64,000 nt of DNA, from positions 134,416,001-134,480,000 of the forward strand of contig OX597816.1 in assembly GCA_951406725.2 (NCBI GenBank), written 5' to 3'. The notes under the pieces were generated by a model, which saw only the letters and a program-made list of their open reading frames with translations, ran no database searches and had not been told where the DNA came from. The stretch's first letter is position 1. Every line of letters begins with the position of its first letter. Shown here in pieces: positions 2,890 through 62,060 of the stretch. Source of the stretch: Octopus vulgaris. Lineage: Eukaryota. Both the position numbers and the translations under genes were made by a program.

Positions 2890-4610
2890 AAGTAGTAACA
2901 TTACTACAGAGTAAAATCTATTTGCCAACATAAAGTGGAAATTCTGATTAGGATGGTATTACTACCTTTTTCTGGCTGGCTACCAACGCACAATAATAAG
3001 GATGCAGTTGTGCATCGGCAGCCAGCTGGAAAAGATGTTTCCCTGGGGCTAAAAATGGTAGTAACATCTTCATAATCAGGACTGTCACTTTACATTGGCA
3101 AATAGACTTTACTCTGCATAAATACATATAGACTACCCTACAAAACACCCTAACCAAAAATTACCAGTACTAGATACAGAACTCTGGCTGGAAAGTGTAA
3201 ATAATAAAACCCAAATCCTCCATTCACACTATGCAAAACCTATGGCCTCCAAATACCTGATCCACCAGAACTCAGCTATCACAGACAATGCCAAATTCAA
3301 TATATTGATGGCAGACCTCATCAGAGTAATGAGAAATGTGTCCTGCATGTGCAACCCTACAGAGTTAAAGAGACACATTCAACACTTCGTTCATTGTATG
3401 CAGTTCTCAAGATACAGCCATAAAGAAAGGATCAGAGTATATAAAGGAGCCATGAGGAAATTTGAAACTATCATACATAACAATAGGAATGGGATTTGCC
3501 CACTTTGTAGGAGCAAGTCATGGAATACCATTGAAAGGACTAAGAAGAAAATAGAGAATGCCAATTCATGGTATGATAGCCACAAATACCAGAGTGTCAT
3601 GTTCATTGACACCACCCCTAGAGGCAAATTGGCGTACTGCTTTAGAAGAGCCCTTGACAAAATTAAGGTTGTAGAAAGGCCAGGTAACCCTATCAAATCC
3701 CTAATCGGTAGAACCTACTCTTTTAATAGAACCCCCTGCACTGATAGGAACTGTATTGTATGTAGATTTAGCCCACGAACAAACTGTAAAGCTAGGAATG
3801 TAGTCTATAGTTTAAGATGTACAGAGGGACGGTGCAGAAATAAGACAATGACATATATAGGGGAGACAGCATGGAGCATAGGAAAGAGGGTAAATGAGCA
3901 TTGGAGGGAACTTAAGGAAGAGAAGGGCTCATCAGTTCTTTACCAGCATGCCGAGTGGGAACACGGCCACTCACTCAATAACATAGAAGTTAAAACCTTA
4001 TCCACACATAGAATGGACACAACACTTAGACAAATTACAGAAGCCTAAATAGAAAGCTAGAATGGAATATTAGCACACACCCCACACACACAACAACCTA
4101 TGACAGAATAAGATACTCATAAACTAATAATAATATGAAACTAATACAATAGACAGGTAAATAAATGGAATTAAATAATTATATACATAAACAAAATATA
4201 ATAAATTAAATTAAATTGATACAAAAAAGAAAGAAACAAAAAAGTAAGTAGATAAAAACAAATGAATAAAATAAAAGTAAATTAAACAAACTTGAATAAA
4301 CAGGGGGTACTGATAATGCAGGTACTATACACATTCCTACACACACACTTGCTAAACATAGACACAGAGAGGGATATACGCAAACGCAAATACAACAGGA
4401 GTACAAAATGGCAGATCATTAGGAAGGAGAGACACAAAAAAGAAAGAAAGCAAAGGACCACTGATGAGGTCACAGAAGTGAGATGAAAGAACTCTGGCCG
4501 AAATACAATTAATATGAGATAAAGCTGAAGCAAGTGAATATCAAATATATAGTGTGTGTGTTTTTATTGGTTAAACTGACAACATGACCATCCTCAAATG
4601 TAACAACATA
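2890..4610 (+). mobile_element. 5'-truncated Penelope-like element (RT C-terminus + GIY-YIG), different family from the 39-47 kb element
   Basis: DYP...KLPVLDTELW, HYAKPMAS, CTDRNCIVC, NVVY..RC...C..YIGETA, SVLYQH...H, RQITEA in/near ORF 3242-4048; TA-rich ends. Confidence 0.85.
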
Positions 4611-29286: not shown

Positions 29287-29313
29287 TTGAATAAATGCTG
29301 ATAGTTAACTTAC

Positions 29314-29623
29314 TCTAAAATAAAGTAAGTTTTATCAAGAGGAGATCCTTGTTTCACAATAGTATTTCCATATTGAAATGTTTCCTTCTTTAGACAGATA
29401 ATTAACTGACGTCTGGTTTTGTGTGCAAGACCTTTGAATAGAGGATTGTCAAGTACAAACTTGCGACGTTCTATGTAGTCTCTCTCCAAGGTTTCACGCA
29501 CTGATCGGTTGTACAATTCTTGGTCAATGACTATCAGGTCTGTTTCTTCATCCACAACAACACTTGCTATGCGTACACAATCCTTCTTGATAAGAGCCAG
29601 TTCTCCAACCACAGAGCTAGCAC
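29314..29623 (-). CDS. CNBD2-like, coding exon 5
   Basis: tgtgtag|...TTA GA|gtaagt; VGELALIKKDCVRIASVV (phosphate-binding cassette GE.AL...R.A) then the start of the second domain IVKQGSPLDKTYFIL. Confidence 0.95.
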
Positions 29624-30281
29624 CTACACAATATATATATAAGTAGCTGTTGTTAATATAACATTGATGAAAATCATCATTAGTACTTCAAAATAATTTA
29701 AATCATATTTTTTTTAATTATCAGTAAATACAATTTTCACACATTTTCACAGCAAATACAAATTTTCAAATTTTATTCTATCAGAACATATATAGTTCAT
29801 ATTGTTTAGTTGTAATTACATTATTAAATACTAGAACATTATTATAAAAACATACATTAATTGTTCCCATAAAACATGACATTCCCTTATACTTTTGAAA
29901 GCCTAAGCATTTTTATCTTTTTGAAAGCCTAAACACATCTATCTTCTTTGAAAGCCTAAATAGCTAATTGCTACTTTATTTATACTTAATTCAATCAGAA
30001 TGTCTTACATATTTTTTATTTCATTGGAAAACTTCAGATATATTTTCACCCTATCAGAACTTGTTATACAGTGTTCTCAAAAAACATTAATAAACACCGA
30101 TAGGGTTTATTTTATAGACACAGGATGGCTCAAATAAAACATGTTTTAACTCAGTCATATATTAACTAATAATATTCTAGGTAGTAACATATCTACTTAT
30201 TCTTAATATGTTCTGACAGATTTAAACAAGAACATCTGATTGTTGATTTTCACCACATGAAAATGCCTTCTTCCTTTAGAT

Positions 30282-37207: not shown

Positions 37208-38342
37208 CAAGCATAGCTGTGTGGTTAAAAAGCTTATTTTGTAAGCATGTAGTCTTGAGTTCAGTCTCACTGTACAGCATCTTGGGCAAGTGTCTTCTAC
37301 TATAGCTCTAGGCTGACCAATACCTTGAGAGTGAAATTACTAGACAGAAATTATGTGTAAGCCTAGTTTGTGTGTGTGTGAGTGCACGTGTGCATGTCTT
37401 TAGGTTTGTGTTTGCCCCACACTGTCACCACATTTTGGTTTGTTTATGTCCCTGCAACTTAGCGGTTTGGCAAAAGACACCAATAGAATAACTGTCAAAC
37501 TTCAAAAAATTAAGTAGTGGGCTTAATTTGTTTGACTAAACATTTCAAAACAGTGCCCTGACATAGCTGCAGTCCAGTGTCACTCCATTGGTTATGATGA
37601 CAAGGGTTCCAGTTGATCTCATTAATGAAACAGTTTTACTCTTTTACTCTTTTATTTGTTTCAGTCATTTGACTGTGGCCATGCTGGAGCACCATCATTA
37701 GTCAAGCAAATCGACCCCAGGACTTATTCTTTTTAAGCCTAGTACTTATTCTATCAGTCTCTTTTGCCGAACTGCTAAGTTACGGAGACGTAAACATACC
37801 AGCATCAGTTGTCAAGCGATGTTGGGGGGACAAACACAGACACAAACACACACACACGCATACATATATATACGACGGGCTTTCAGTTTCCTTCTACCAA
37901 ATCCACTCACAAGGCTTTACTATAGCCCGGGGCTATAGTAGAAGACACTTGCCCAAGGTGCCATGCAGTGGGACTGAACCCGGAACCATGTGGTTGGTGA
38001 ACAAGCTACTTACCACACAGACACTCCTGCGCCTTTGTTTGTGAAGTTATTATGTAAGTGGCTGAGCACTCCACAGACATGCATACCTTTGATGTAGTTC
38101 TCAGAGAGATTCAGTGTGACACAGAATGTGACAAAGCTGGCTCTTTGAATTACAGGTACCATTCATTTTTGCCAGCTGAGTGGACTGAAGCAATGTGAAA
38201 TAAAGTATCTTACTTAAGGACACAATGCACCACTAGGAATCGAACCCACAACCTTACAACCATGAGCTGAATACCCTAACCACTAAACCATGCACCATCA
38301 CTGTCCCATGACTGAAACAAGTAAAAAATAGAAAGATAAAGA
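37208..38342 (+). mobile_element. SINE family A (+) split by nested insertions
   Basis: Head/body 37208-37579; tail ATGACTGAAACAAGTAAAA resumes at ~38308; a different minus-strand tRNA-SINE spans 37580-38300. Confidence 0.8.
37635..38033 (-). mobile_element. tRNA-derived SINE family A (internal CA/TA microsatellite; tail ...GACTGAAACAAGTAAAAGA), full-length copy
   Basis: A/B-box head TGTGTGGTAAG...GGTTCAGTCCC, CTTGGGCAAGTGTCTT box; at least 10 copies in the window. Confidence 0.9.
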
Positions 38343-39048: not shown

Positions 39049-39083
<35 letters not shown>

Positions 39084-39087
<4 letters not shown>

Positions 39088-39997
39088 ATCAAAATAAAAA
39101 CATGATGCGAAGGATTCAGCAGTACATATGTTTCGGGCCTTTATTAGACAGATTTATAACAATGCATAATGTATGTCTGTGGCTTTCTTCAGCCGCGCAC
39201 AACAGCTTCCACAAGGACATGTGTTACATCAAAAGTTCTTGGTTGGGGATGCAAATCCTCTCATTCGCGTACGACATAATGCGGCAGCAGCATAGAATTG
39301 AAGCGTCCATCTCTTTCTTCTCTCAATGTAGAATGAGGAAATTTGGATGTTGAAGTAATGTAAATAAATAAATACATATATAGACGTGAAGATGGAGGGG
39401 TGAGAATTCAGGACGAGGGATAAAAAAATGTATAAAAAGCGTAAGTATAGAAAAATATAAAAATGTAGAGTATAAAGATATAAAGGGATATAAGGAGATG
39501 TAAAGGGGGTATAAAGAATATAAAGAGATATAAAGAAATATAAATAAATGTAAAGGCATAAGGTTATAAAGTAAAAATAGAAATAGAAATAAAAGTAAAG
39601 AGAATAAATCGAAGTAGAATAAAGGTAAAAATAAAAGTAAAAATAAAAATAAAATAAAATAAAATAAAATAAAAATATAATTTGGTAAAGTTTAACATGA
39701 GATGAAGGTGGTTGAAAGTTAGAGGTGTGTGTTAAAGGTGCCCACGTAGGGGCGGGCGGGGGGAACTGAAAATTGGAAGGGTGGGAAGTGGAGTTTGGCG
39801 GTGTGCGTTCAACATCCGAGTTAGAAATGTGAAAGGGTATAGATATAGGGAAATAAAGAGACTATATAGGAAGGATATGGGTGTAGGGGAAGAAATATGT
39901 AGGGAAAAGAAGACATATATGGGAGACAAAATTTGTATATATAGGAGGAAAATGCAGGGAAACATATATGCACATACACACACCCACACACACACAC
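39084..39997 (-). repeat. Inverted, internally deleted pLTR copy
   Basis: 39084-39599 is the reverse complement of ~41632-42143; 39600-39997 is the reverse complement of ~40212-40604. Confidence 0.9.
39119..39196 (-). ncRNA. Type I hammerhead ribozyme in inverted pLTR (two substitutions)
   Basis: GCGG-CUGAAGA-aAGCC...GGCC-c-GAAA-CAUAUGUA^CUGC; stem II G>A mismatch, stem I C>U wobble. Confidence 0.75.
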
Positions 39998-42218
39998 ACC
40001 ATCCTGTATACACAAACTTATTAATACTTTCAAATACTACAAAGCTTAGGTTATTATACCAACTCCCCCATGCAATTTCCTCCCACCCGGTGCAACCGGT
40101 CGGCTCCAGCACATCCCGCTTTCCTATATGTGCGTGTATATGCGTATATGTGTGCGTATATATATGTATGTGCACATATGTGTACGTATATGTATATATA
40201 TATATATATGTGCGTGTGTGTGGGGGGGGGTGTATGTGCATATATGTTTCCCTGCATTTTCCTCCTATATATACAAATTTTGTCTCCCATATATGTCTTC
40301 TTTTCCCTACATATTTCTTCCCCTACACCCATATCCTTCCTATATAGTCTCTTTATTTCCCTATATCTATACCCTTTCACATTTCTAACTCGGATGTTGA
40401 ACGCACACCGCCAAACTCCACTTCCCACCCTTCCAATTTTCAGTTCCCCCCGCCCGCCCCTACGTGGGCACCTTTAACACACACCTCTAACTTTCAACCA
40501 CCTTCATCTCATGTTAAACTTTACCAAATTATATTTTTATTTTATTTTATTTTATTTTTATTTTTACTTTTATTTTTACCTTTATTCTACTTCGATTTAT
40601 TCTCATTTTTATTTTCATCCCTTATCTTAATTCTTATAATTTTTATAGTTTTTATATTTCATTTCTAACCTTTACATTGTATTTCTTATTTTATACTGTA
40701 TTTCTTACTTTTATTTCTAATTTTTACCCTTACCCTCATTCTTACCCCTAACTTATCGCTTTATATCTCTATATATGTCTATTTTTTTTGCTTATCCCTT
40801 ATTTACTTACCTATGGATCCACTTTATGATTATATGAGCGTCCGTGTACGTATGTATACGTATACATATATGTACATATGTACGAGTAAACACCTACGTC
40901 TGGATGTACATACCCCGTATTTCTTTTTTTACATGTTTTCTTATATTCATATGTTTACACCTATTTGTATACATCTTTTAATATCTTATAGCTATACCCA
41001 TATGCGCGTATGTCTGTGTGTGTGTATGTAAGTGTATATGTGCACGCACATATGCACACACAGCCGTGTGTGCGTGCACGTGTAGACGTGAGTGCGCGAT
41101 TCTTTACATACGTTCTTATATACATCCTTTAATATCTTATATCTAAACCTGAAAGCGTGGGCATATGCGTATGTGTATGTAAAGATGGGCGCACGTATGT
41201 ACATATGGGTGTGTACACGTATAATGTCCGTGTATACATGCGGATATTCTGTTGTATGTATGTATATGTACGCGCGTGCGTGTGGGTGTGTGTATGTTTA
41301 TGTACATGTTTACACGTGAGTGCGTGTGTATGCTTATAGGCTTGGAGGCGTATATGTACGCGTGTATATGGGTGTATGTATCCATGATGGTATGTATGTA
41401 CTAGATGACCAATTAATTCAAAGAACCAGATTAAACGCTCAACAGCTCTGATTTACAACACATTAGGTCCCCAGACGACACTGTTGATTTATTGACACCC
41501 AAAACTTCTACAACTAAATTTTATCAATCTCCTGACCACCATGTTTGGTCCGTAACCTCTATACATCCCTTATCTTTATATTTTTTTACATTTTTATCAT
41601 GTTTATTCCTATTTTTATTTTTTTACTTTTTACTTTTATTTCTATTTCTATTTTTACTTTATAACCTTATGCCTTTACATTTATTTATATTTCTTTATAT
41701 CTCTTTATATTCTTTATACCCCCTTTACATCTCCTTATATCCCTTTATATCTTTATACTCTACATTTTTATATTTTTCTATACTTACGCTTTTTATACAT
41801 TTTTTATCCCTCGTCCTGAATTCTCGCCCCTCCATCTTCACGTCTATATATGTATTTATTTATTTACATTACTTCAACATCCAAATTTCCTCATTCTACA
41901 TTGAGAGAAGAAAGAGATGGACACTTCAATTCTATGCTGCTGCCGCATTATGTCGTACGCGAATGAGAGGATTTGCATCCCCAACCAAGAACTTTTGATG
42001 TAACACATGTCCTTGTGGAAGCTGTTGTGCGCGGCTGAAGAAGGCCACAGACATACATTATGCATTGTTATAAATCTGTCTAATAAAGGCCCGAAACATA
42101 TGTACCGCTGAATCCTTCGCATCATGTTTTTATTTTGATCAATTTACTCCACCACCTACACCACCAAACGGTATACACAGGTGCTTATAATTATCAAGTA
42201 CTCACCCCGAATTTCTAT
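39998..42218 (+). repeat. PLE pseudo-LTR, upstream direct copy (starts with the last ~50 nt of the ORF)
   Basis: Matches 44755-46978 at an offset of ~4757-4759 with only a handful of differences. Confidence 0.95.
42031..42108 (+). ncRNA. Type I hammerhead ribozyme in pLTR
   Basis: GCGG-CUGAAGA-a-GGCC...GGCC-c-GAAA-CAUAUG-UA^CCGC; stem I GCGG/CCGC, palindromic stem III ACAUAUGU, GUA cleavage triplet. Confidence 0.85.
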
Positions 42219-42295
42219 ACTCAACTCACCTACGTTGTCACTAGGATCTGATCCCACGTAACCGCGACAACCTTTAGTACTTGACGAACCCAAGC

Positions 42296-44806
42296 ATGAA
42301 GATTCAAAGGATTCACACTAACTTCTCTCCCAAGGACATACCTCTCCACTCCGACAAAACTTACACGACGACCCTCATCCACCGGACCACAGACTTTATT
42401 AGAAGAATCAGGTGGGCGGCCTACCATTTCGATAACCCGGGGAAAAGCAACCCCAACTCTAACCAAGAAGAAATAGCACACAGGAAGATATTTAAAAGCA
42501 GAAGAAACCCACCCTCTAACTACGCACTGGAAAATTTTGAAAAAGACTTAATCGACCTCATTACCAACATCAACATTAGTAAACATAAGACCATTTCCAA
42601 CACCCACTTAAGGAGCCTTAAAGATTTCCTGCATTCACTTAGGAACGATGATAGTCTTATCATACCCGCCGACAAGACTGGGAACTGGTATAGGCTAGAC
42701 TACCAAACCTACAAATCGCTCATCATGAGGGAACTTAGCAAAAAATATAAAACTACTTCTACGGATAACCTTAAGGAAATTAACTACAAAATCAAGGAAG
42801 TTATGAGCAAATTAGACCTCCTGGACAGAACAGAACCTATTAAACCACAAGTACCCAAAATTACTATTAAAGACCATAAGAAAGACTTCCCGGATAATGT
42901 AGGAGTACGATTAATCTGTCCGACTAAATCGGATATCGGCAGACTTAGCAAGACTATCCTGGACAAGGTGATCCCACGCATCAAACCCCACATCCCACTC
43001 CAACTATGGATTAACACCGACGATGTGCTAGAATGGTTTAACACTATCACCAATAGGCCCAACTACTCATTCATCCAATTCGACATAGCTAGCTACTACG
43101 CCAGTATATCCCCCATCTTACTTAACAAATCCCTTATATTTGCCCGCAACCTTTCACTCATAGACAGAGAAAAAATTGACATAATACTATTAGCTAGAAA
43201 AACCATAATAGAATTCGACGGTAGACTCTGGACCAGATCCGATACCCCCGACAATTTTGATGTGGCTATGGGCTCGAGCGATTCAGCTCAGGTGACTGAC
43301 TTGGTCGGGGCCTACCTGCTCAAGAAGCTTTTCTCCGAGGTACCGGATCTTCAGAGGGGTCTATACAGAGACGACGCTCTCTTCATATACCCCACCAACA
43401 ATAGGAGTAAACAAGAAAGAATTAGGAAAAAGATCAGGCTTTTTTTCAAATCCTTCAATCTTAAACTAGAATTTATGACCAATACTAAAATAGTAAACTT
43501 CTTAGATGTTACGTTAGACTTGAATAAGCACCTTCACCACCCGTATAGGAAACCCGAATAAACTACCAAATACATCCATACCTCTTCCAACCATCCACCC
43601 TGTATAATTAGCACCACGGTCCAAGCCATCTCAGACAGACTTACAAAACTATCCTCTAATAGAGAAATTTTCAATAATCACGCACAACGCTACAACCAGG
43701 CTCTCTATAGTGCCGGGTATAACCAGAGAATATCATATGTAGACCACCCGGGAACGTCCGTCGGACATAAAACTCCCAATTATAATCGAACTCAGCACTC
43801 AACTCACACTAGCGATAATTCTAATTTAAACTCCATACAACGTATAGGAAATAGGCGAACTAATAGAATAGCACACAATAGCAACCCTCCCGACGAGAGC
43901 AATATAGATCCTATTAGGAGAAATAGAAGGGATAATAGTAGATTACGCAAATATATATGGTTCAACATACCTTACAACTTAGCAGTTAGGGGTAAGTTAT
44001 GTAAGAGAATATTCTCTATCATTTCCAACAACTTCCCACCCACCCATAAGTATAGAAGTATCTTCTCCAACAAAACCATTAGGATTTCCTACTCTACCCT
44101 GCCCAACATGAGCTGCCTCATAGCTAAACATAACTATATTAATATTAGAACAGCTAGATCAAGAGCAAACTATAGCGACCAACAGAACCCCCCTCATCTA
44201 GATAGTAGACAATATAACCAGACTGGCAGCCATACTACCCAAACAGTTAGTAATAACACCCGCCAACACAACAGAGGAAATACTACACCCATCAACAACC
44301 AGGAGGATATCAACGCCCCCACTCGTATTGCAACACCTCCGCCTGGGATTAGCAGCACACGACCGAATAACGCAATGCAATGCAACTTCAGATGTGCATC
44401 AGAGTGCCCGCTACAGGGCGCATGTAGGGCGAAAAACGTAATATATTCATGTGAGGTGAGTACCCAGTTTAACGCACTCACCTACATAGGGTGCTCAACC
44501 TCCTGGAAATCCAGATACTACAACCACCGGTCCTCGCTGAAACACAGACATAAGGCTAACAGCACCTCCCTTTCTAAAAGAATTTGGGAATTAAAAGACA
44601 AATGCATAGGCTTCAAACTCAGGTGGTCCATCATCGGATCAGCTGCACCTTATTTAAATAATAGAGCAGGATGCCAACTATGTTGTGTAGAACTCCTGAA
44701 CATCTTGAAATTCAAAGACAAACACAATCTTATTAACAAAAGGTCAGAGTTCAAACCATCCTGTATACACAAACTTATTAATACTTTCAAATACTACAAA
44801 GCTTAG
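42296..44806 (+). pseudogene. PLE reverse transcriptase + GIY-YIG endonuclease ORF (~836 codons) with one premature TAA at 43559-43561
   Basis: Motifs ADKTGN, FDIASYYASI, MGSSDSAQVTDLVG, GLYRDD, VNFLDVTL, SNHPP, IWFN.PY, C..RC..CPL.G.C, VIY...YIG, RYYNH, CQLC..E, NKRSE..C.H. The frame is continuous across the TAA. Confidence 0.93.
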
Positions 44807-46978
44807 GTTATTATACCAACTCCCCCATGCAATTTCCTCCCACCCGGTGCAACCAGTCGGCTCCAGCACATCCCGCTTTCCTATATGTGCGTGTATATGC
44901 GTATATGTGTGTGTATATATATGTATGTGCACATATGTGTACGTATATGTATATATATATATATGTGTGTGTGTGTGTGGGGGGGGGGGTGTATGTGCAT
45001 ATATGTTTCCCTGCATTTTCCTCCTATATATACAAATTTTGTCTCCCATATATGTCTTCTTTTCCCTACATATTTCTTCCCCTACACCCATATCCTTCCT
45101 ATATAGTCTCTTTATTTCCCTATATCTATACCCTTTCACATTTCTAACTCGGATGTTGAACGCACACCGCCAAACTCCACTTCCCACCCTTCCAATTTTC
45201 AGTTCCCCCCGCCCGCCCCTACGTGGGCACCTTTAACACACACCTCTAACTTTCAACCACCTTCATCTCATGTTAAACTTTACCAAATTATATTTTTATT
45301 TTATTTTATTTTATTTTTATTTTTACTTTTATTTTTACCTTTATTCTACTTCGATTTATTCTCATTTTTATTTTCATCCCTTATCTTAATTCTTATAATT
45401 TTTATAGTTTTTATATTTCATTTCTAACCTTTACATTGTATTTCTTATTTTATACTGTATTTCTTACTTTTATTTCTAATTTTTACCCTTACCCTCATTC
45501 TTACCCCTAACTTATCGCTTTATATCTCTATATATGTCTATTTTTTTTGCTTATCCCTTATTTACTTACCTATGGATCCACTTTATGATTATATGAGCGT
45601 CCGTGTACGTATGTATACGTATACATATATGTACATATGTACGAGTAAACACCTACGTCTGGATGTACATACCCCGTATTTCTTTTTTTACATGTTTTCT
45701 TATATTCATATGTTTACACCTATTTGTATACATCTTTTAATATCTTATAGCTATACCCATATGCGCGTATGTCTGTGTGTGTGTATGTAAGTGTATATGT
45801 GCACGCACATATGCACACACAGCCGTGTGTGCGTGCACGTGTAGACGTGAGTGCGCGATTCTTTACATACGTTCTTATATACATCCTTTAATATCTTATA
45901 TCTAAACCTGAAAGCGTGGGCATATGCGTATGTGTATGTAAAGATGGGCGCACGTATGTACATATGGGTGTGTACACGTATAATGTCCGTGTATACATGC
46001 GGATATTCTGTTGTATGTATGTATATGTACGCGCGTGCGTGTGGGTGTGGGTGTGTTTATGTACATGTTTACACGTGAGTGCGTGTGTATGCTTATAGGC
46101 TTGGAGGCGTATATGTACGCGTGTATATGGGTGTATGTATCCATGATGGTATGTATGTACCAGATGACCAATTAATTCAAAGAACCAGATTAAACGCTCA
46201 ACAGCTCTGATTTACAACACATTAGGTCCCCAGACGACACTGTTGATTTATTGACACCCAAAACTTCTACAACTAAATTTTATCAATCTCCTGACCACCA
46301 TGTTTGGTCCGTAACCTCTATACATCCCTTATCTTTATATTTTTTTACATTTTTATCATGTTTATTCCTATTTTTATTTTTTTACTTTTTACTTTTATTT
46401 CTATTTCTATTTTTACTTTATAACCTTATGCCTTTACATTTATTTATATTTCTTTATATCTCTTTATATTCTTTATACCCCCTTTACATCTCCTTATATC
46501 CCTTTATATCTTTATACTCTACATTTTTATATTTTTCTATACTTACGCTTTTTATACATTTTTTATTCCTCGTCCTGAATTCTCGCCCCTCCATCTTCAC
46601 GTCTATATATGTATTTATTTATTTACATTACTTCAACATCCAAATTTCCTCATTCTACATTGAGAGAAGAAAGAGATGGACGCTTCAATTCTATGCTGCT
46701 GCCGCATTATGTCGTACGCGAATGAGAGGATTTGCATCCCCAACCAAGAACTTTTGATGTAACACATGTCCTTGTGGAAGCTGTTGTGCGCGGCTGAAGA
46801 AGGCCACAGACATACATTATGCATTGTTATAAATCTGTCTAATAAAGGCCCGAAACATATGTACCGCTGAATCCTTCGCATCATGTTTTTATTTTGATCA
46901 ATTTACTCCACCACCTACACCACCAAACGGTATACACAGGTGCTTATAATTATCAAGTACTCACCCCGAATTTTCTAT
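44755..46978 (+). repeat. PLE pseudo-LTR, downstream direct copy
   Basis: Near-identical to 39998-42218; ends in (TA)n. Confidence 0.95.
46790..46867 (+). ncRNA. Type I hammerhead ribozyme in pLTR (second copy)
   Basis: Identical to 42031-42108. Confidence 0.85.
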
Positions 46979-49882: not shown

Positions 49883-50275
49883 CTAGACAAGGAGGAAAAT
49901 ATAACATATTACATAAAAATTACAAAGAAACACAGCAGACAAAAATAAATGTTGGATACTTGTAGTAATCAAATATAATGTGACAAACTTATGTAGGAGT
50001 TTCTCGGTAGTCAAATCAACATTTTACTTCTCTATTTATAAATAAAGAAGTAAATCAGAGGCAGAAGAATAATATTCATGGCATTAACAAAAACTCTCAG
50101 ACTTATTTAATGCAGCCATCAAATCTCTATGCATGGATGAAAAAAAAGTAGGAAAAATATTCTATATAGAATCAAGATATGAACATTCAATAACTTTCAG
50201 TTGCTTAAATGCCACTGAAAGCAAGACAGGCTCTAGTCTAATGGGCCTGTAAGCTTGAAACAGATTTTGTGTGTT

Positions 50276-50318
<43 letters not shown>

Positions 50319-50532
50319 TAGACAGGCAGACAGACAGACAGACAGACAGAGATAGGGATTAAAGAAACTTGGGTGAATACCTCAGTCAGCACACCATGTG
50401 GAAAACCTGGCTAACAGAATATCCAAGAAAAGAAAATCAGAACCTGTAAACAGTAAATCCTCAGGGCATTCATACAAGCTGCAAACTGTATGAGATTCAC
50501 CAATCATTTAGTTGGTGCTTTTATTGCAAAAT

Positions 50533-50850
50533 GGAGGCGCAATGGCCCAGTGGTTAGGGCAGCAGACTTGCGGTCGGAGGATCGTGGTTTCAACTCCCAG
50601 ACTGGGCGTTGTGTGTGTTTATTGAGCAAAAACACCTAAAAGCTCCATGAGGCTCCAGCAGGGTATGGTGGCAACCCTGTTGTACTCTTTCACCACAACT
50701 TTCTCTCACTCTCTCTTCCTGTTTCTTGAGTAACGCTGCGATGGACAGGCATACCGTCCAGCTGGGGAGAACACATACATCACAGAAACTGGGAAACCGG
50801 GCCCATGAGCCTGGCTAGGCTTGAAAAGGGTGACGTTTATTGTTTATCGT
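50533..50850 (+). mobile_element. tRNA-derived SINE family D
   Basis: GGAGGCGCAATGGCCCAGTGGTTAGGG head; TSD TTTTATTGCAAAAT. Confidence 0.9.
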
Positions 50851-51399
50851 TTTTATTGCAAAATATAATAGCAATCAGATGAAAAAAACAAAGATGATGT
50901 TATATGATTTTATTTAAGGTTATGATCATTTTGAAAGGCCTCAGGAGCTGTTCTATCACTATGCACATTGGTTTATACATACAAAATTCATATAAATGCA
51001 CACCATACAATTAATTATTGAAATAGTAGTAAATTTCCTTTCTCTCTTTTTATTGTACAAGCATACAATTAAACTTGGCAATTTCTTAGTCTTTCAGGGA
51101 CTGTGGTACATACTAAACCAAAGAAGGTAATGTAACATGCCTTTTCATCTACAATCTCCATCAATTAAATTATCTTATTAGGGGAGTACTTGGTGTTTAG
51201 AACTTTGATACTATGCAACTCCAACTCCACCATAGTATATGTTTGTTGGAAACTCAAAATCTACCATGATAACTTTATGGTGGTGGTGGTGGTGGTGGTG
51301 GTGGTAGTAGTGGTAAAATTTGATTCAACAATAAGCATGACCATTGCTTGTTGATGAGCTGTAAAGTACAAATGTCTCTTCTCAGTTAAATGCTATGCA

Positions 51400-52090
51400 A
51401 AATCATGATACTTGACTTTGTGTACTGACATGTATCTCTTCAGACAACCAATAGAAAGATAATGGTTGAGACATGATGACAGACATGTGCTCTTTCAGGT
51501 GGGGATGATCTATTATTGGATGGCTTTGGTTCATATAACTTTGAGTCATTAACAAGACAGGCCTTTGAAGGACAAACTGATTACAAGTTGAGCATTTGAA
51601 GGAATTATTAATATCAATGAGGTTTCCTTTCTTTGCATCTCATTTTAATTTTTCATGTTTAACATGTTTAATGTATTTCTCTTCAAATGCTTGGCCATAC
51701 AGTGTATATTTTTTTCCTACAGGCCCTCTCAAATGCATTTTATTCCAATTTATTACATGGATGTTACTTTTCTTAAAAGCTGATTTAAGGCATTTTTTGT
51801 ATCTTAATTTCAGTTTGTGAGGTCTTTTTCTAGAACATACTTCCCCATAGAGTAGACACACTCGAATTTGTTCATCTTCCATATGACTATATGATCTGCT
51901 CACCACCATCTACTATGTTGCAAGAACGCTTCTCTATTTACAACATTTGCTAACTCCATTTGCTAACACCAGGATATAAACATGGTCATTATATTAAAAA
52001 CAGTTGGAGCCAAATGCATTCCAGCTGTTTAATATGTTTTTGAATACAGTTTATATTTCACATCCATATAACAAAATCAGGCATGTTTTG
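51400..52090 (-). mobile_element. Old RTE-like LINE fragment
   Basis: LLYGEV...RPHKLKLRYKKCLKS motif on -. Confidence 0.6.
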
Positions 52091-52363
52091 AATACATTGT
52101 TTGAAAATAGATAGTTTAGTGTCATTTTATATATGTATATCCATTAAGACCGAAATAAAGATTGAAATTTGACAATGTGCAGCTAAAACTAAGTCAAAGT
52201 ATTTGTGCTGCTTATAATCCTCCCAACCAAGAATTGTTTTTCATTAAATGTGTTTAGCTAATAGTCTTTTTAGTTTAGTTGAGAATTGTTTTTAATTAAG
52301 TCTAGAATTATTTTATGACTGTTCTTGTTTTGCATAGATCTCTGTGGAGTCCAGTTTTCTCTC

Positions 52364-52365
<2 letters not shown>

Positions 52366-52440
<75 letters not shown>
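52366..52440. repeat. (CT)n microsatellite
   Basis: Direct reading; also 34893-34950. Confidence 0.95.
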
Positions 52441-52443
<3 letters not shown>

Positions 52444-52609
52444 TTTCTCTCACTCTGTTTGTCTGTCTGTCTTTCTATCTATCTCTTTTTCTCTCTCATT
52501 CTTTGTATTTTACTTATATTTTCTAGCATCTGTGAAAGAAGATACAGCTTGAATATATTTAGCTACTTTATCTGCATATTTTCCTCTCCACTAAGAAGAA
52601 ATATATATA

Positions 52610-52646
<37 letters not shown>

Positions 52647-53317
52647 TAACTTTTACAAAGAAAAGGTTGACAATGACTTCGAAACTTTAGCTTGCTTGTC
52701 TCATCAGACTGTGATTGGCTATATATAATCTTTGACAAGCTGCTTTTTGAGGTCAGTGGAGCCATGTGTAATAATAGGTAGATGTGGTGTAGGAAGGCTG
52801 GCAAAATGTAACAAGGAAGGATAAAAGAGCATAGGAAGAATGTATGTGTTTATAGGTGTAGGTTGATAGAAAATTATGGGAAGATTTATTTTGGTTTGAT
52901 GTAGGAATTTTGCAATTGTTTGGAGTTCTGTCGAGTACAGAAGTAAAAATGTAAACAGATGTGTCAAATTCAGATCATGACATTATTTATTGAGAAAATT
53001 AGTTCTTGTTGCGTTTTAGAGTTCACAAAAGAATGCTTGTAGATAAACCTGTTGGCCTCACAGCATTGATCAGATGGAGGTTGAATTGGTGTTGGTGTTA
53101 TTAGATCTCTAATATGAAATTTTAAATTAGGTATTTGGGAAAGTGTAGGACTGAAGAGACCATAGTATAAATAATCATTTAGATTTCCTCCTAGTGTGGC
53201 TAATTGTATTCCTATTATGTTATTGTACACATTCACATGATCTATAAATCCAGATGAATGCATAAAGGTGATCCCTTTTTTTCCATAGGTATATTCATCT
53301 ATAATGAGATATATATC

Positions 53318-53686
53318 TTTTATCTTACTTGTTTCAGTCATTAGACTGCAGTCATGCTGGCGCACTGCCCTGAAGAAATTTTTTTAGGTGAATTAACCAA
53401 TCCTAGTACTTTTTCTTTTTTTAAGCCTGGTATTTATTCTATCAGTCTCTTTTGCTGAACAGCTAAGGTAAAGTGATGCAAACATACCAACATCAAAGGA
53501 CAAACTCGGACACAAAAGCACACACACACACACATTATATGCTTCTTTCAGTTTCTGTCTACCAAATCTACTCACAAGGCTTTGGTTGGCCCAAATCTTA
53601 AAGTACAAGACATTTGCTCAAGGTGCCATACAGTGGGACTGAACCCAGAACCATCTGGTTGGGAAGTAAACTTCTTACCTGCACCT
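53318..53686 (-). mobile_element. SINE family A
   Basis: Homology to 37635-38033. Confidence 0.85.
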
Positions 53687-53741
53687 ATATGTATAAACAA
53701 ATTATAAATGTACTAATATTATGCATTTGTCTTTGTATATA

Positions 53742-53773
<32 letters not shown>

Positions 53774-54015
53774 CTCACACATACATATACTCATATGCAT
53801 CAATAAAAATATACCTATATGGATATATATAGAAAATTAATATAAACAGCAGGCTGCAATGTTCCATCAAAAAGGAGAATTATAATTGTCACTAAATGTG
53901 ACTAGTATATTAAAAAGCACCTACAAAATGCTCTAATGCTGTAGTTAACACACAGGAATGAAAACACATACACTAACAGGAACCATAATTGTCTGAAAAC
54001 TACCAACCGACCACT

Positions 54016-54067
54016 CTTAAGTCTGACACATCAGTTTCAGCAATTTCCATTGTCATCATCAGTTAAG
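54016..54067 (-). ncRNA. Decayed type I hammerhead ribozyme, unit 1
   Basis: CUUAA-CUGAUGA-U-GACAAU-GGAA-AUUGCU-GAAA-CUGAUGUGUCAG-AC-UUAAG (cleavage triplet GUC>GAC). Confidence 0.7.
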
Positions 54068-54347
54068 CCAGTTCAGTGTTTGACTATTTCCAGACCTGTT
54101 TCTATATTAGCATATATGTTTTGTTCTTCCAAATTAATGGATGACTAAGCAATTCGCTAATATGTATACACAAAATTAATATAAACAGCAGGTTACAATG
54201 TTTCACCAAAAAGGGGAATTATAATTGTTACTGAATGTGACTAGGGTGTTAAAAAACACCTACATTCCTAGAAATAAGGACTAAAATGCTCTAATGCTGT
54301 AGTTAACACTCATGAATGAAAACATATACACTAATTGACCGAGAATT

Positions 54348-54399
54348 CTAAAGACTGACACATCAGTTTCGGAAATTTCCGTTACCATCATTGGTTAAG
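54348..54399 (-). ncRNA. Decayed type I hammerhead ribozyme, unit 2
   Basis: CUUAA-CCAAUGA-U-GGUAAC-GGAA-AUUUCC-GAAA-CUGAUGUGUCAG-UC^UUUAG (core CUGA>CCAA). Confidence 0.65.
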
Positions 54400-54512
54400 C
54401 CAATTATATATATATATATATATATACTTTATTTAAAAGCATATTACTCTACCTCTGGTATTTGAGTTCTCTTTTTTCTACCTTGTTTCACATTTATCTG
54501 CTTAGTCCAGTG

Positions 54513-54533
54513 TATATATATATATATATACTA

Positions 54534-54607
<74 letters not shown>
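54513..54607. repeat. (TA)n microsatellite
   Basis: Direct reading; also 27732-27783, 29245-29283. Confidence 0.95.
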
Positions 54608-54609
<2 letters not shown>

Positions 54610-54989
54610 AATATATATATGTATGAATGTATGTATGTATGTATGTATGTATGTACATATATGTATATATTTATAAATACACAAACATACACTGATGTAT
54701 ACGTACAATCCATTCATACATACACACAAACATACATGCCCACACATACACACATATATAAGTGCACACATGCATGTGTGTGCATGCGCACACTTGTGCA
54801 TGTGTGTACATATGCATGTGTGTGTGTGTGTTTCACATCCAGTTGTAGTTCAAATGTTCTAGAGTAGGTAAAGAACCGCTTTTACATGCATCATCCTGTG
54901 ACACATTTGGACACATCATCAGTAATATTTATTGGGATCACAACGGGCTTTAGGTCTTTGAACAATCAGATACCTCCATCCAGATGACC

Positions 54990-56500
54990 TAGCTAGGATT
55001 TATCAAGTCCCAACTTGTGTCCAATTAGCACTACACCTAGTAGCACTGCCCCTTCAAGGGTTTGCACCTTCTGATCTACAGCCACCTTCAGGCAACTTCT
55101 GCTGCTGCTGCTGCTGCTATAGCCAACTTATTGGCTTCTGTGATGCCCAGTATGTTGTAAGATCTACAGAAGGACTGACCTTCAAACCCTCTACATCCCA
55201 CCTCAATGAGATCACTCCTTGCTTGCTAGTTATGACATACCTCCACCAGCTCAACATATTTCTTTCTCTTACTTTCAATACTGTCCTCCCAGTGAATGGA
55301 GATTTCTGATGGAACAACCTGCATGGATAATTCTGAGATCAGCTCTATATCTAACCCTAATGAAGTTGAGGTGACAGTTTTTAGCAATTTCAACTGCTTT
55401 CCTGGGTCAACTTTCAGCTCCCCATCTTTTGTTGTTGCAAGTAAGCCTGCAACCCTTGTTGCTGGCATCTTATTCACACCTGCCATAACAAATGTTATCA
55501 TTTTCTTTGTAGAGCAGAGGTGCCTGCTATGGCTAATCTCCCTTTAGATGGTGTTGGCTATGACCTTCAGAACCTGGTCATGCTTCCAGGACTTTTGGAC
55601 AGCTACAGTGAACATGTTCCAGGATTATTCTCCACTGGCACAGGAGCAAAGAAAGCTGGTGACTTTGATTTAACATAACAGAACAATCTGGAGCAGCCTG
55701 GTAGGACATAATAAACTACCTGAATTAGGAATTTTATCCAGTGAGGCTTTGTTCTCCAAAAATCATGCCATGGAACTTCAAGAGTCAGCGCTTTGTCCTG
55801 TCTTAGCCAGTCTCTCATCCCTACATGCTTATTAACTCATTCCTCCTCACTTGACATTCACACCTCATTCTGGATCAGCAGCCTTCTAACCTTTCTTTAT
55901 ACTTTGTGATAGTGAGGTATTTTGTTGCTGCCCAAGTCAACCCTTCCGCAAGTTACAATACCTACAAGTGCCCTGCATCTTATTTATGACTCTACAGCTT
56001 TTATACCCTCAACTGCCTGCCACTTCAATTTCGTTCTGATCTCAATACCAGCCTAACAGACTTTAGAGTCACAGTAGTTTCAATATTGCAACACCTCCAC
56101 AGTTGCTTTCCCAGGCTGCAGACAGGGAGCTTCAACTTTACATACAGGGCAATATTTTTCAGGCATTGAGGAAGTTCCAGTTACTTCTGCTGGAATCCAC
56201 TGATTATCCTCTCAAAGTTTTCTATTGTGGATTCATGAAGGAATAAAAGAATACATTGGAGGATGCCATGCTGGTAAATTCAGGTCTTAAACTTACCAGG
56301 AATATCTGACTAGTTCACTATGGATAGCCAGGCTTCTAATTCCTTGTTAGTTTCATAGGTGAATAATGTATCTCTCAGCCAGCTATAGAACACCTTTTCC
56401 AGGTTCTTCACTGGTTTCTTGCTGATAGATGGTATTAGTACACTACTGACCAAGAAAACAAACCTGCTTCTATCTCAGCATTTTTTCAACACAAGATATC
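54990..56500 (-). mobile_element. Degenerate RLE-type non-LTR retrotransposon (HERO/NeSL-like)
   Basis: On -: IKFLIQVVY.VLP, LEHV..CP..HDQVLKVIA, LKVD.GKQLK, I.WED.IE.KRKKY.EL, VE.GCRGF-like. Confidence 0.75.
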
Positions 56501-56992
56501 TGAACTTAACTTGATTCAATGCCATTTTTTACCCTCCTAAGTCAATGAATAGAGTCCTAAAGTTTAAGGCCTTCAAAATATTGTTAAATGAAAGAAAACA
56601 TGAAGTAAGTTATAACTTATTTGAAATAAATATTTTATGGCTACAAGAATGGTAAGTGATATAACCTCATAAATATAGATTAGATAAACATTACAAGTGA
56701 ACAGTAATAATTATTTCAACTGAATTGCATGGGATACATATTTCAGACTAATCCAAATCAGAGAAATAAATCATTAAGGGAAAAAATGTTTCTATTGAAC
56801 AAATCAAAAATCAAACTTTTCTTCAATTTGTAATATAATTACTTTTTGTTATTGTTTTATTTTATTCTTTTTCCTTGGACATTTTTTTTTCAGCTTTGTA
56901 AAAAGATCCATTGTTACATGGCTAAATATATTTAGTTTATCACTCAAGGCAATAACGTTATATAAAAAAAAATAAACTGTAAATATCATTAC

Positions 56993-59779: not shown

Positions 59780-60286
59780 TATAAAAGCAATAACAAAAAC
59801 ATAATAAACATGTGTAACCTGAACAATATTAAGTTACAAAGATGTCTCAACTTTTCTGCTGTGACATCCTCATGTTTAACCAGATCTGCAGTTATCTTGT
59901 CTATCTCTGCTGTCTTGTTGTTCTTCAGGCAATAAATGGCTTTGACACCTTTTACCATTGAGAGGCCCTCATCTGTCCCCTGCAACTGATCCATCAAGGG
60001 CCCCCGTCATATGATGTCAAAGAGATTGACTGTGTCTGACCAGTTCATAACTTATTCTTTTTACTCTTTTACTTGTTTCAGTCATTTTACTGTGGCCATG
60101 CTGGAGCACCGCCTTTAGTTAAGCAAATCAATCCCAGGACTTATTCTTTGTAAACCTAGTACTTATTCAATCGGTCTCTTTTGCCGAACCACTAAGTTAT
60201 GGGGATGTAAACACACCAGCATCAGTTGTCAAGCAATGTTGGGGGGACAAACACAGACACACAGACATATACACACACAGACATAT

Positions 60287-60334
<48 letters not shown>

Positions 60335-62060
60335 CAGGCTTCTATAAGTTTCCATCTATCAAATCCACTCACAAGGCTTTGGTCAGCCCGAGGCTGTAGT
60401 AGAAAACACTTGCCCAAGGTACATGCAGTGGGACTGAACCCGGAACCATGTGGTTGGTAAGCAAGCTATACCACACAGCCACCTCTATGCCTCTAACTTC
60501 TTGAAAATGTTATACTGACCCGATTAAGTGTTCTATGTTTGTTACCACCATCTCATCATCCTTACACTAAAGTGGTACACATGAACCACTTCTTGCTCCT
60601 CTCAGCTTTCATGTTTCTGTACAGACATCTGGTGCCATTTCTCTTTGTTGCTTCTTCTGCCTCCTTGCCCATCTCCTTGATCTATATCTTCTTGATTCCC
60701 TACAGCTCCTTTTTATGTACTTGTTTTGGTGTCTATCCTCACTGTCTTGTTGTTTCCATGTCTGCACATCCTTCACTTGGTCTCCTTTGCTTTTTATTTA
60801 TTTCTTCTCATCAATCAGGTTTCATTAGGGTGTGGGGATCCATAATGCCAGAATGTTGCCCTACCTGTGTGCAAATACTGCATTAGCACTAAATGTGATG
60901 ACCTGTTGAAAATGAATCCATTGTTTCTAATAATCAAACCCTCTCTCTGAAACTTAAAAATTATTTTTCATTGTCTCAATGAATTTAGTCAAAGTTTTCA
61001 CTTGCTTGAGAGCCTCCTTTATGTTAGGCCACTCTGTCTTTGTATCCTCTTTAACTTCAAGTATATTCAAGCAATCACTACATTGTGGTCTGGACTAACA
61101 TTTGCTCCACTGAAGATATGTACGTCTTGCTAGGAGACTGTCAACAAGTATTAATGCAGATGTAAGTTTAATTTCTGAATTTACTACACAATGAAGTCTG
61201 TGATGTCTTGTAGATATGCTTCAGAATTAAGAATGGGGTACTAAAACTGCAGAAGATAATCAACACCAGAATCTTCCTACCATTCTTTGTTGCACAGTTG
61301 GTTAAGCCATGAAGCCTCATGATCAGGAATAACTTGTGTCTGTTATTCTTCAGTTGAACTTTGGAGTTACTCATTGATGTTATACCATAGAATGCTGTTG
61401 AGGAAATTCTGCAAGTGGTTATCAAACACTTCGTTATCTTCTTGTGTTGCAACCTCTTGGGGTAAGTTTGCACAACCTTTACTTTGGCATGCCTAGTGAT
61501 GGCCTTCACTGTGATAATCTGGTCATTTACTGGTCGCTATCCAATTAGTGCATACTCACTCCAGATGATGCCAGCATCTCCAGTATGATGATTTTTGTGA
61601 TCAGAGTGTAAAACTGTCTTATCTTCACTTCTGATGCATTTTTGACTGATCCAGTGTGTCCTGCTGGTGCCCAGGATACCAATGCATTAAATGCCCGTCT
61701 CTTGTATCACTTGCTTCAACTGTTATGCTTCAAAACAGTGTACAGACATTCCAAGTAGTCAATCTTGAGTTCTTAGCACTCAAAATATTACTTACATCTA
61801 AATGTCCTTTCAACTCTGATTTGACACCCATCACAGATGCATCAGCAGATGTGATGTTTCCTTGCTGGATTGTTAATGAATGGTTGAAGCTGCTCATCAT
61901 TTCTGTGGAAATTGAGTATTCAAAGCAAGGTACTCACCTTAAATTCCATCCATCCTCCTTTCTCAACAACAGCCCCAGACCAGTTATGCCAAATGTCAAA
62001 TCCGGGGTCTCAAAGAAAAGGGGAAATCTGTAACCCAAGACAGAGGCTCATTTCAGATGC
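59780..62060 (-). mobile_element. Degenerate RTE-like LINE (APE endonuclease to RT), interrupted by a SINE
   Basis: On -: RLTTWNVCTL (APE start, ~61740-61775), DQIITV, and LKNNKTAEIDKITADLVK (pre-RT motif). Confidence 0.7.
60055..60492 (-). mobile_element. SINE family A
   Basis: Full-length homology to 37635-38033. Confidence 0.9.

Follow-up and report, generated by a model that had tools for sequence, protein, structure and literature searches.

What is the insertion that interrupts an octopus intron with two hammerhead-like motifs in tandem, and by which route was it copied there? The locus lies in a window of 64,000 nucleotides from Octopus vulgaris (the whole stretch analysed, contig OX597816.1, positions 134,416,001 to 134,480,000, numbered here from its first letter), which consists of AT-rich, microsatellite-laden animal DNA. 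The insertion measures 570 bases (53833-54402, minus strand) and corresponds to about 1.7 copies of a non-coding unit. An earlier note, made from the letters of this window, had described it as a tandem dimer of decayed hammerheads and as the fossil of a non-LTR retrozyme. From the analysis presented here, the element is very probably a decayed copy of a non-coding octopus repeat of ~357 nt with a Penelope-type type I hammerhead motif, that is, a non-autonomous, Penelope-derived retrozyme. Four features are absent from the earlier note: the long helix I with its bulge, a Penelope-type signature, a 3' end that is fixed within TA-rich DNA and the placement in the intron on the sense strand.

Layout and genomic setting of the insertion

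The features of the locus are collected in Table 1. Homology between the two units begins at about 54402, directly past a TA run, and ends at 53833. At the latter position unit B enters TA-rich DNA, whereas unit A runs on with a tail of ~85 nt to the next motif. The insertion is thus composed of one unit plus ~0.7 of another, unit B ending without the ~85-nt tail. Two units are indeed present, as claimed for the tandem dimer, but a full dimer is not. The earlier numbering of the units followed the plus-strand order; the defects assigned to each motif were right, but the downstream unit on the minus strand is the one called B here. No target-site duplication is discernible at the insertion owing to the TA run, and TA-rich DNA is also found on the other side, beyond 53833.

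The two units are identical in 190 of 222 aligned columns (86%), with 23 transitions and 9 transversions. Their hammerhead motifs are spaced by 332 nt, exactly as first reported. The alignment further reveals that unit A is devoid of a 25-nt block of B and unit B of a 19-nt block of A. The GC content of the unit is 32%, and no stop-free frame of the circularised monomer exceeds 42 codons, in agreement with the claim that there is no ORF. A third copy of the unit was not found in the window, and the dimer was not reported by Tandem Repeats Finder.

Table 1. Features of the insertion and its surroundings (window positions)
Feature	Position	Strand	Description
Whole insertion	53833..54402	-	5'-truncated unit followed by full unit, ~1.7 units, no ORF; delimited by alignment and flanks
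Hammerhead A	54348..54399	-	Helix Ia; core mutated to CCAAUGA; extra U 54387; decayed helix II; GAAA; helix III; GUC intact
Body of unit A	54172..54347	-	Without 25-nt block near 54335 (present in B and other copies); loose ends at 54334
Tail	54085..54171	-	Occurs once; connects fixed 3' break point to next hammerhead
5' arm of extended helix I	54068..54084	-	Helices Ib and Ic and 4-nt side of internal loop; family letters at 54072, 54075, 54081, 54083
Hammerhead B	54016..54067	-	Helix Ia intact; core CUGAUGA; extra U 54055; decayed helix II; GAC replaces GUC
3' arm of extended helix I, unit B	54002..54015	-	Family letters at 54014, 54012, 54011, 54005 in 62-100% of depth
Body of unit B	53833..54001	-	Without 19-nt block (present in A and other copies); stops at fixed 3' break
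(TA)n microsatellite	54405..54428		5' side of insertion; likely insertion target
Host intron	49891..56991	-	Between coding exons 57036-56992 and 49890-49624 of cyclic-nucleotide-binding-domain gene

The host is a minus-strand gene with a cyclic-nucleotide-binding domain, and the hammerhead motifs lie on its sense strand. Its exon at 29313-29630 shares 98% identity with a protein of Octopus vulgaris, 96% with one of O. bimaculoides and 92% with one of Argonauta hians (4 matches among 128 candidates). Seven or eight coding exons of this gene, which is conserved in Octopus and Argonauta, are spread over 21169-57036 (-). The sense orientation within the intron could be read as a present role for the host, in the form of intronic cleavage or of regulation of the gene, and a near-identical locus also occurs under a second organism label (2 differences in 195, run X5). 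Such a role is barely credible, however, given the crippling changes in both motifs and the difference of 14% between the copies, with loss of CpG.

The two local hammerhead motifs

In both units the topology is that of a type I hammerhead, in which helix I is open. Hammerhead A, for which the cut is predicted after 54353, does not have the 5' arm of the long helix I. In hammerhead B the cut would follow 54021, and helix III holds a CpG-decayed palindrome (54035-54022). The defects described at the outset can be confirmed: B retains CUGAUGA and helix I but reads GAC at the cleavage site, while A retains GUC but reads CCAAUGA in the core. With both of its motifs broken, this copy is likely dead.

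With a relaxed hammerhead descriptor, no site in the window scores higher than unit B, whose score is reached by 2 matches in 60 resampled windows; unit A is missed. A strict descriptor finds no hammerhead in the window, and neither does Rfam at E values up to 10. The only Rfam matches in the window are microsatellite-driven miRNAs and weak snoRNAs, and these were dismissed as chance. As they stand, units A and B fold no better than shuffled sequences (z -0.80 to +0.16). Since the strict descriptor, Rfam and the fold of the unaltered units are all negative and unit A is missed even by the relaxed descriptor, the window alone is only suggestive of a hammerhead, and the weight comes from the other copies. 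The missing Rfam match, the lack of a significant fold in either unit and the negative strict descriptor would also suit a satellite-like repeat that was amplified as DNA, with a hammerhead look due to chance or to a long-dead relic. This alternative is taken up again with the folding tests below.

The repeat family in other copies

The search for further copies covered 19 runs under six organism labels, of which 17 hold part of the stretch and one holds half of it or more. No RNA run is listed among them, which carries no weight as to expression, and run X5 (87 million letters) is not taken for RNA. Contigs from four runs (one each of the labels A, B, D and E) were aligned at 80% likeness, yielding 1356, 10, 819 and 1819 contigs, respectively. 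Over the body of the unit the summed depth in these runs is 27,926, 39, 5,014 and 79,349, compared to ~44, 2-16, 4-8 and 45-55 for single contigs. This suggests hundreds of loci, although summed depth does not equal copy number. The depth over motif B is about ten times below that of the body, and over motif A it is lower still; many relatives of the body may therefore be without the hammerhead motif or have lost it. Overall, the family is multi-copy, non-coding and common to several species (four organism labels). Motif scans of metagenome contigs (two patterns) and of viral contigs gave no matches. A viroid or virus origin was rejected, as the element is genomic, AT-rich, of one polarity only and has no matches in these collections.

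The letters of the other copies were taken from the 40 variant rows listed of 144. Over unit B, the U of the cleavage triplet is restored in 82, 85, 91 and 89% of depth (13, 3, 11 and 14 contigs in the four runs). The same is true for the two CpGs of the helix III palindrome, which are restored in 56, 77, 50 and 59% and in 69, 77, 44 and 54% of depth. The guess that GUC and a CpG-rich palindrome in stem III were the original letters is thereby borne out (82-91% and 44-77% of depth). In helix II, the family letter at 54053 is present in 65-90% of depth and that at 54039 in 40, 77, 48 and 31%. A C at 54049 occurs in 60, 0, 76 and 69% of depth (0 of 22 in the second-listed run) and also in unit A, which makes loop II mostly a loop of six nucleotides. 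The GNRA cap that had been proposed for stem II is the letter of unit B and was rejected as the prevailing form in the family; C is found at 60-76% in three of the four runs.

Eight further variant rows extend helix I beyond an internal loop of 4 x 4 nucleotides, and unit A carries the family letter at 8 of 10 comparable variant places. Both units possess an extra U after the core (54055 in B, 54387 in A). Next to it, G 54054 is placed opposite a C that is found in unit A and in 31-77% of depth over unit B. A loss of 2 nt in loop III, seen in 9-19% of depth in three runs, would leave the palindrome intact. A loss of 1 nt near 54053 (21% of depth in run X1, 4% in X14) may mark a variant without the extra base.

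The loose ends of the alignments show that both deleted blocks (25 nt and 19 nt) are present in other copies. Because the 25-nt block missing from unit A occurs in B and in other copies, the family unit would be about 332 + 25 = ~357 nt long, rather than the monomer of ~330 nt proposed previously. Loose ends at 54172 (9 contigs, X1) and 54173 (15 contigs, X14) enter TA-rich DNA (among the 24 loose ends listed of 912). This position corresponds to 53833, the end of unit B, so that the same 3' break is shared by other copies. Furthermore, contigs with 25-44 differences, which hence stem from other loci, span body-tail-motif as well as tail-motif-body (among 32 pieces listed of 4317), and the head-to-tail junction is consequently a trait of the family. 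Joints at which an alignment goes back to an earlier part of the unit were set aside as proof of arrays or circles, as the alignment may divide a single copy over units A and B.

Two other observations concern the family as such. A second subfamily, which departs from this unit at 54303-54313, is represented in each of the four runs (by up to 23 contigs, in X1); the family thus comprises two forms or more. Within 53993-54325, opposite-strand joints are found in run X14, and one X5 contig aligned in two orientations; these joints suggest inverted insertions of the kind that Penelope-like elements make.

Predicted folding of the motif and of the circular monomer

When all 15 listed variant letters of 53999-54086 are placed on unit B, the Watson-Crick pairs of the model rise from 18 of 26 in the local copy to 25 of 26, and the z-score of the motif fold drops from 0.08 to -2.63. 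No such restoration was seen with random letters at the same places (0/2000) or with the same changes at random places (0/2000). Helices I (open), II and III are thus formed around the core with the family letters, but not by the local copies. The fold is predicted to contain an internal loop in helix I and the 6-nt loop II, and the 5' arm of the extended helix I pairs with probabilities of 0.9-0.99.

For the circular monomer, 24 of the 40 listed variant rows were used (10 lie outside the monomer, 5 are specific to X5 and 1 is near 50%). Two of the letters used are not the majority in every run, as 54039 is so in one of the four and 54030 in three. With the 24 letters the energy falls from -59.3 (z 0.24) to -91.7 (z -6.07; 0 of 100 shuffles). 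Moved to random places, the same changes yield -64.9 +/- 4.4 (0/300) and random letters at the same places -80.3 +/- 5.2 (3/300), while the 14 letters of body and tail alone reach -83.4 versus -60.4 +/- 4.0 (0/300). A Watson-Crick pair of the circular monomer is restored by 17 of the 24 letters. As wrong letters at the 24 places also improve the circle (-77.0 +/- 2.6), part of the energy gain is due to base composition. An 18-bp helix between the start of the body (54335-54318) and the tail (54123-54106) prolongs helix I and can already be seen in the sequence of the window. With the family letters, the monomer is accordingly predicted to be a strongly self-paired circle, in which a rod closes across the unit junction; this does not hold for the local copy (z 0.24).

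These tests bear directly on the satellite-like repeat mentioned above. Independent copies restore 25 of 26 pairs where none of the 2000 controls does so, the structure signal is also present in body and tail, and the copies are dispersed with one 3' break. Amplification as DNA, with the hammerhead as accident or relic, is consequently highly improbable.

A single motif with the family letters is predicted not to adopt the active fold. Instead, the core of the motif is taken up by pairing with the 3' arm of its own helix III, the active fold being 3.5 kcal/mol higher and helix III having a probability of 0.003. For two motifs, the double hammerhead is the minimum-energy dimer (-68.1 versus 2 x -27.8, i.e. 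-55.6). In a tandem RNA with the real spacer, all 14 bases of the palindrome would pair between the motifs (probability 0.98) and both cores would be free, while with the decayed loop 0 of 14 do so. It should be kept in mind that the energy models ignore the tertiary contacts of the hammerhead.

Identity of the core

The claim that the two decayed motifs reconstruct one perfect ribozyme is not supported. The intact CUGAUGA core is seen in unit B alone, and the monomer is predicted to bury it. No core change is found among the 40 variant rows listed of 144, yet the loose ends show common letters that are absent from the listed rows. At core positions 4-5, TG in B is set against CA in A, a pattern that fits a decayed CpG. 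The alignment contains only one other such opposition, at 54005/54337, where the other copies have CG. Because of this match, the intact core could possibly derive from a CCGA ancestor. With a C at core position 4, a single motif folds actively in the prediction and the lock vanishes. The corresponding U4C exchange is described as lowering the activity in vitro while still supporting the infectivity of a viroid (PMC3088659).

Comparison with known hammerhead elements

The animal non-LTR retrozymes (Cervera and de la Pena 2020, PMC7229834; Li, Clavereau and Pollet 2026, 10.64898/2026.07.22.740005) resemble the octopus family in that a type I hammerhead sits in units of 150-450 bp joined head to tail, those of mussel measuring 350-390 bp (PMC7229834). 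A GC content under 45% (32% here), the absence of an ORF, the occurrence of dimers among dispersed copies, a predicted self-paired circle and the co-occurrence with Penelope-like elements are further similarities. The octopus element displays this layout with head-to-tail units of 332 nt (~357 nt in the family) and 819-1819 contigs in three runs. The earlier label of fossil non-LTR retrozyme is supported in that the insertion is a decayed member of a multi-copy, non-coding family with a type I hammerhead and, given the family letters, a predicted self-paired circle fold. With both local motifs broken, this copy falls outside the preprint's definition of 'active' (a complete hammerhead in at least two consecutive units). 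In contrast to the retrozymes described, the octopus core has the Penelope-type extra nucleotide. Most metazoan retrozyme motifs are also described with a helix III of 1-2 bp, compared to 5 bp with a palindromic loop (a 14-nt palindrome) in octopus. [quoted passage not shown]

The hammerheads of Penelope-like elements (PLEs) are recognised by a nucleotide that lies between 9 and 10.1, by G10.1-C11.1 and by a palindromic helix III (PMC4209133). The same can be observed in the octopus unit, with its extra nucleotide after A9, the G10.1-C11.1 pair and a palindromic helix III in 44-77% of depth. The cleavage triplet follows the NUH rule: unit A reads GUC, as do 82-91% of depth at the site of unit B. 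A predicted action as dimer and the insertion as partial tandem are shared with the PLE hammerheads as well. However, in metazoan PLE motifs helix III is described as minimal or absent, helix I as short and helix II as 7-8 bp long, and these motifs flank an ORF for reverse transcriptase (RT) and endonuclease. The octopus unit has a full helix III, a long bulged helix I, a 5-bp helix II and no ORF.

A closer match in layout is MRC1 of Chlamydomonas, a non-autonomous Penelope-like element that is likewise non-coding and forms head-to-tail partial tandems in microsatellite targets (PMC8557442). The octopus insertion is also a partial tandem with a fixed 3' end in a microsatellite target, though without an identified autonomous partner of matching 3' end within the window. 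Unlike the octopus unit, Chlamys and Naiad elements are mostly without canonical hammerheads as described in the same source (PMC8557442). The double hammerheads of the newt and axolotl satellite and of avocado sunblotch viroid (PMC6155905, PMC7229834, PMC3088659) cleave as dimers via a palindromic helix III, which is also predicted here. There the dimer is needed for a helix III that is too short; in octopus the length of helix III suffices, and what is predicted to block the monomer is the pairing of this helix's 3' arm with the core.

Two other classes were considered and rejected. An autonomous Penelope-like element does not fit, as the unit has no ORF with RT plus GIY-YIG and no match to the Penelope-like proteins of the window. 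A plant LTR retrozyme would have a type III hammerhead in LTRs, a PBS, a PPT and a 4-bp target duplication, and is at odds with the type I topology and the absence of an LTR layout.

In the papers and supplements searched, no report of hammerheads or retrozymes in octopus or other cephalopods was found, only of Naiad and Hydra elements. As far as the literature was searched, the octopus lineage is new, although the kind of retrozyme is already known from other animals. The significance is modest, in that hammerhead retrozymes are extended to octopuses. The 2026 preprint (10.64898/2026.07.22.740005) proposes that animal retrozymes are non-autonomous Penelope-like elements, with vertebrates as its only material, and the octopus family provides an invertebrate test of that proposal.

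Proposed route of copying

Taken as a whole, the following mechanism is rather probable: a tandem RNA would cut itself as a double hammerhead and circularise, and a Penelope-like reverse transcriptase/endonuclease would copy it into (TA)n. In the tandem RNA, the 14-nt palindromes of two motifs would pair and free both cores, as in the folding prediction. Cleavage would then occur after GUC, by analogy with the known families. The monomer could be closed by a host ligase, as has been argued for animal retrozymes (PMC7229834), into the self-paired circle. Where the motif stands alone or in the circle, the helix III 3' arm is predicted to pair with the core, and this would guard the circle against being cut again. 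Lastly, a Penelope-like protein would reverse transcribe the RNA from a fixed internal site into AT-rich DNA, leaving an insert of more than one unit (PMC11167929).

Several steps have precedents in the literature. The predicted fold fits the idea, put forward in PMC4209133, that multimers may cleave whereas monomeric circles avoid doing so. Penelope elements are characterised by ends fixed at internal priming sites and by targets rich in AT (PMC11167929), a preference for (TA)n is described for octopus Naiad and Hydra elements (PMC8557442 supplement) and Penelope repeats are abundant in octopus (PMC8967140). The anole Penelope element starts reverse transcription in an AC-rich stem-loop (PMC11167929). 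At the fixed 3' break of the octopus copies (54162-54171), a palindromic hairpin of 10 nt that contains AC is made complete by the family letter at 54162.

The stricter reading, in which the 3' arm of helix III is a decoy for the core, is a tentative one and on balance doubtful. It holds that only the tandem RNA, by a 14-bp intermolecular palindrome and an 18-bp rod, is cut while the circle stays shut, and that the elements form a cephalopod retrozyme family. If true, a Penelope-type core and insertion pattern would be combined with a retrozyme-type circle, making the family an invertebrate link between both groups, and young copies might still form circles in octopus tissue. The predicted switch (monomer off, dimer on) offers a testable model of how circles avoid being cut again. 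No paper on a monomer-locked double hammerhead was found in a narrow literature search, which is too narrow to show absence.

The same non-autonomous Penelope-like family might also have been copied from uncut, linear tandem transcripts, with the hammerhead as an inherited passenger and no circle at all. RNA that has not been processed is inserted by the anole Penelope protein, which initiates at internal sites of fixed position, and its insertions in vitro did not require cleavage by the ribozyme (PMC11167929). Moreover, 8 of 9 Xenopus retrozyme dimers failed to cleave in vitro (preprint 10.64898/2026.07.22.740005), and the shared 3' break of the octopus copies lies ~185 nt past the predicted cut instead of at the cut. 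Against this, the family letters restore GUC, all helices and a rod bridging the unit junction, and this points to selection for the ribozyme as well as for a closed fold. Copying without cleavage is thus an unlikely route, though one to be reckoned with.

Still less probable is that an autonomous Penelope-like element was truncated down to its terminal repeat (pLTR), and that template jumping duplicated what was left. The Penelope-type motif, the partial-tandem layout, the TA target and the opposite-strand joints are all pLTR traits, a near-intact element with a hammerhead-like core of its own is present at ~39-47 kb, and a link to an ORF could sit among the loose ends beyond the 24 listed of 912. 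However, the body-tail, tail-motif and motif-body junctions all occur in contigs of other loci, the unit has no coding trace, and apart from TA runs its sequence matches neither of the two Penelope-like elements in the window. The self-cleaving, circularising retrozyme remains the preferred reading.

Other elements in the window

The near-intact element occupies 39081-46905 and contains an RT-like frame (42278-43561) followed by an endonuclease-like frame (43562-44806), with one stop between them. It is arranged as a partial tandem of 4,759 bp plus an inverted truncated copy, and its protein neighbours fall into eukaryotic clusters with an RT domain. Neither Pfam nor NCBIfam matched the Penelope-like ORFs of the window to RT or GIY-YIG; the element is classed as Penelope-like by its layout and motifs. 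Its terminal repeats (42035 (+), 46794 (+) and 39192 (-)) hold a hammerhead-like core with CUGAAGA, a short helix II, an AT-rich loop of ~46 nt and GAAAC. This core is unrelated in sequence to the octopus unit, and its region folds no better than shuffles. The element was considered as parent of the insertion and rejected, as motif and ends do not match, and no autonomous partner sharing the ends of the unit was found within the window.

A fragment of a second Penelope-like ORF is located at 3122-4048 (+) and matches the first weakly in the GIY-YIG-like part. A decayed CUGAUGA core is found ~400 nt downstream of this fragment, at 4461 (+). Just upstream of the insertion, at 54900-55800 (-), lies what is presumably the decayed 3' end of a LINE with a restriction-like endonuclease, one translated frame of which is full of stops. 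Copies of a dispersed SINE-like repeat (families D10, D12 and D13) are present at 53400-53700, 37642-38014 and 60059-60474.
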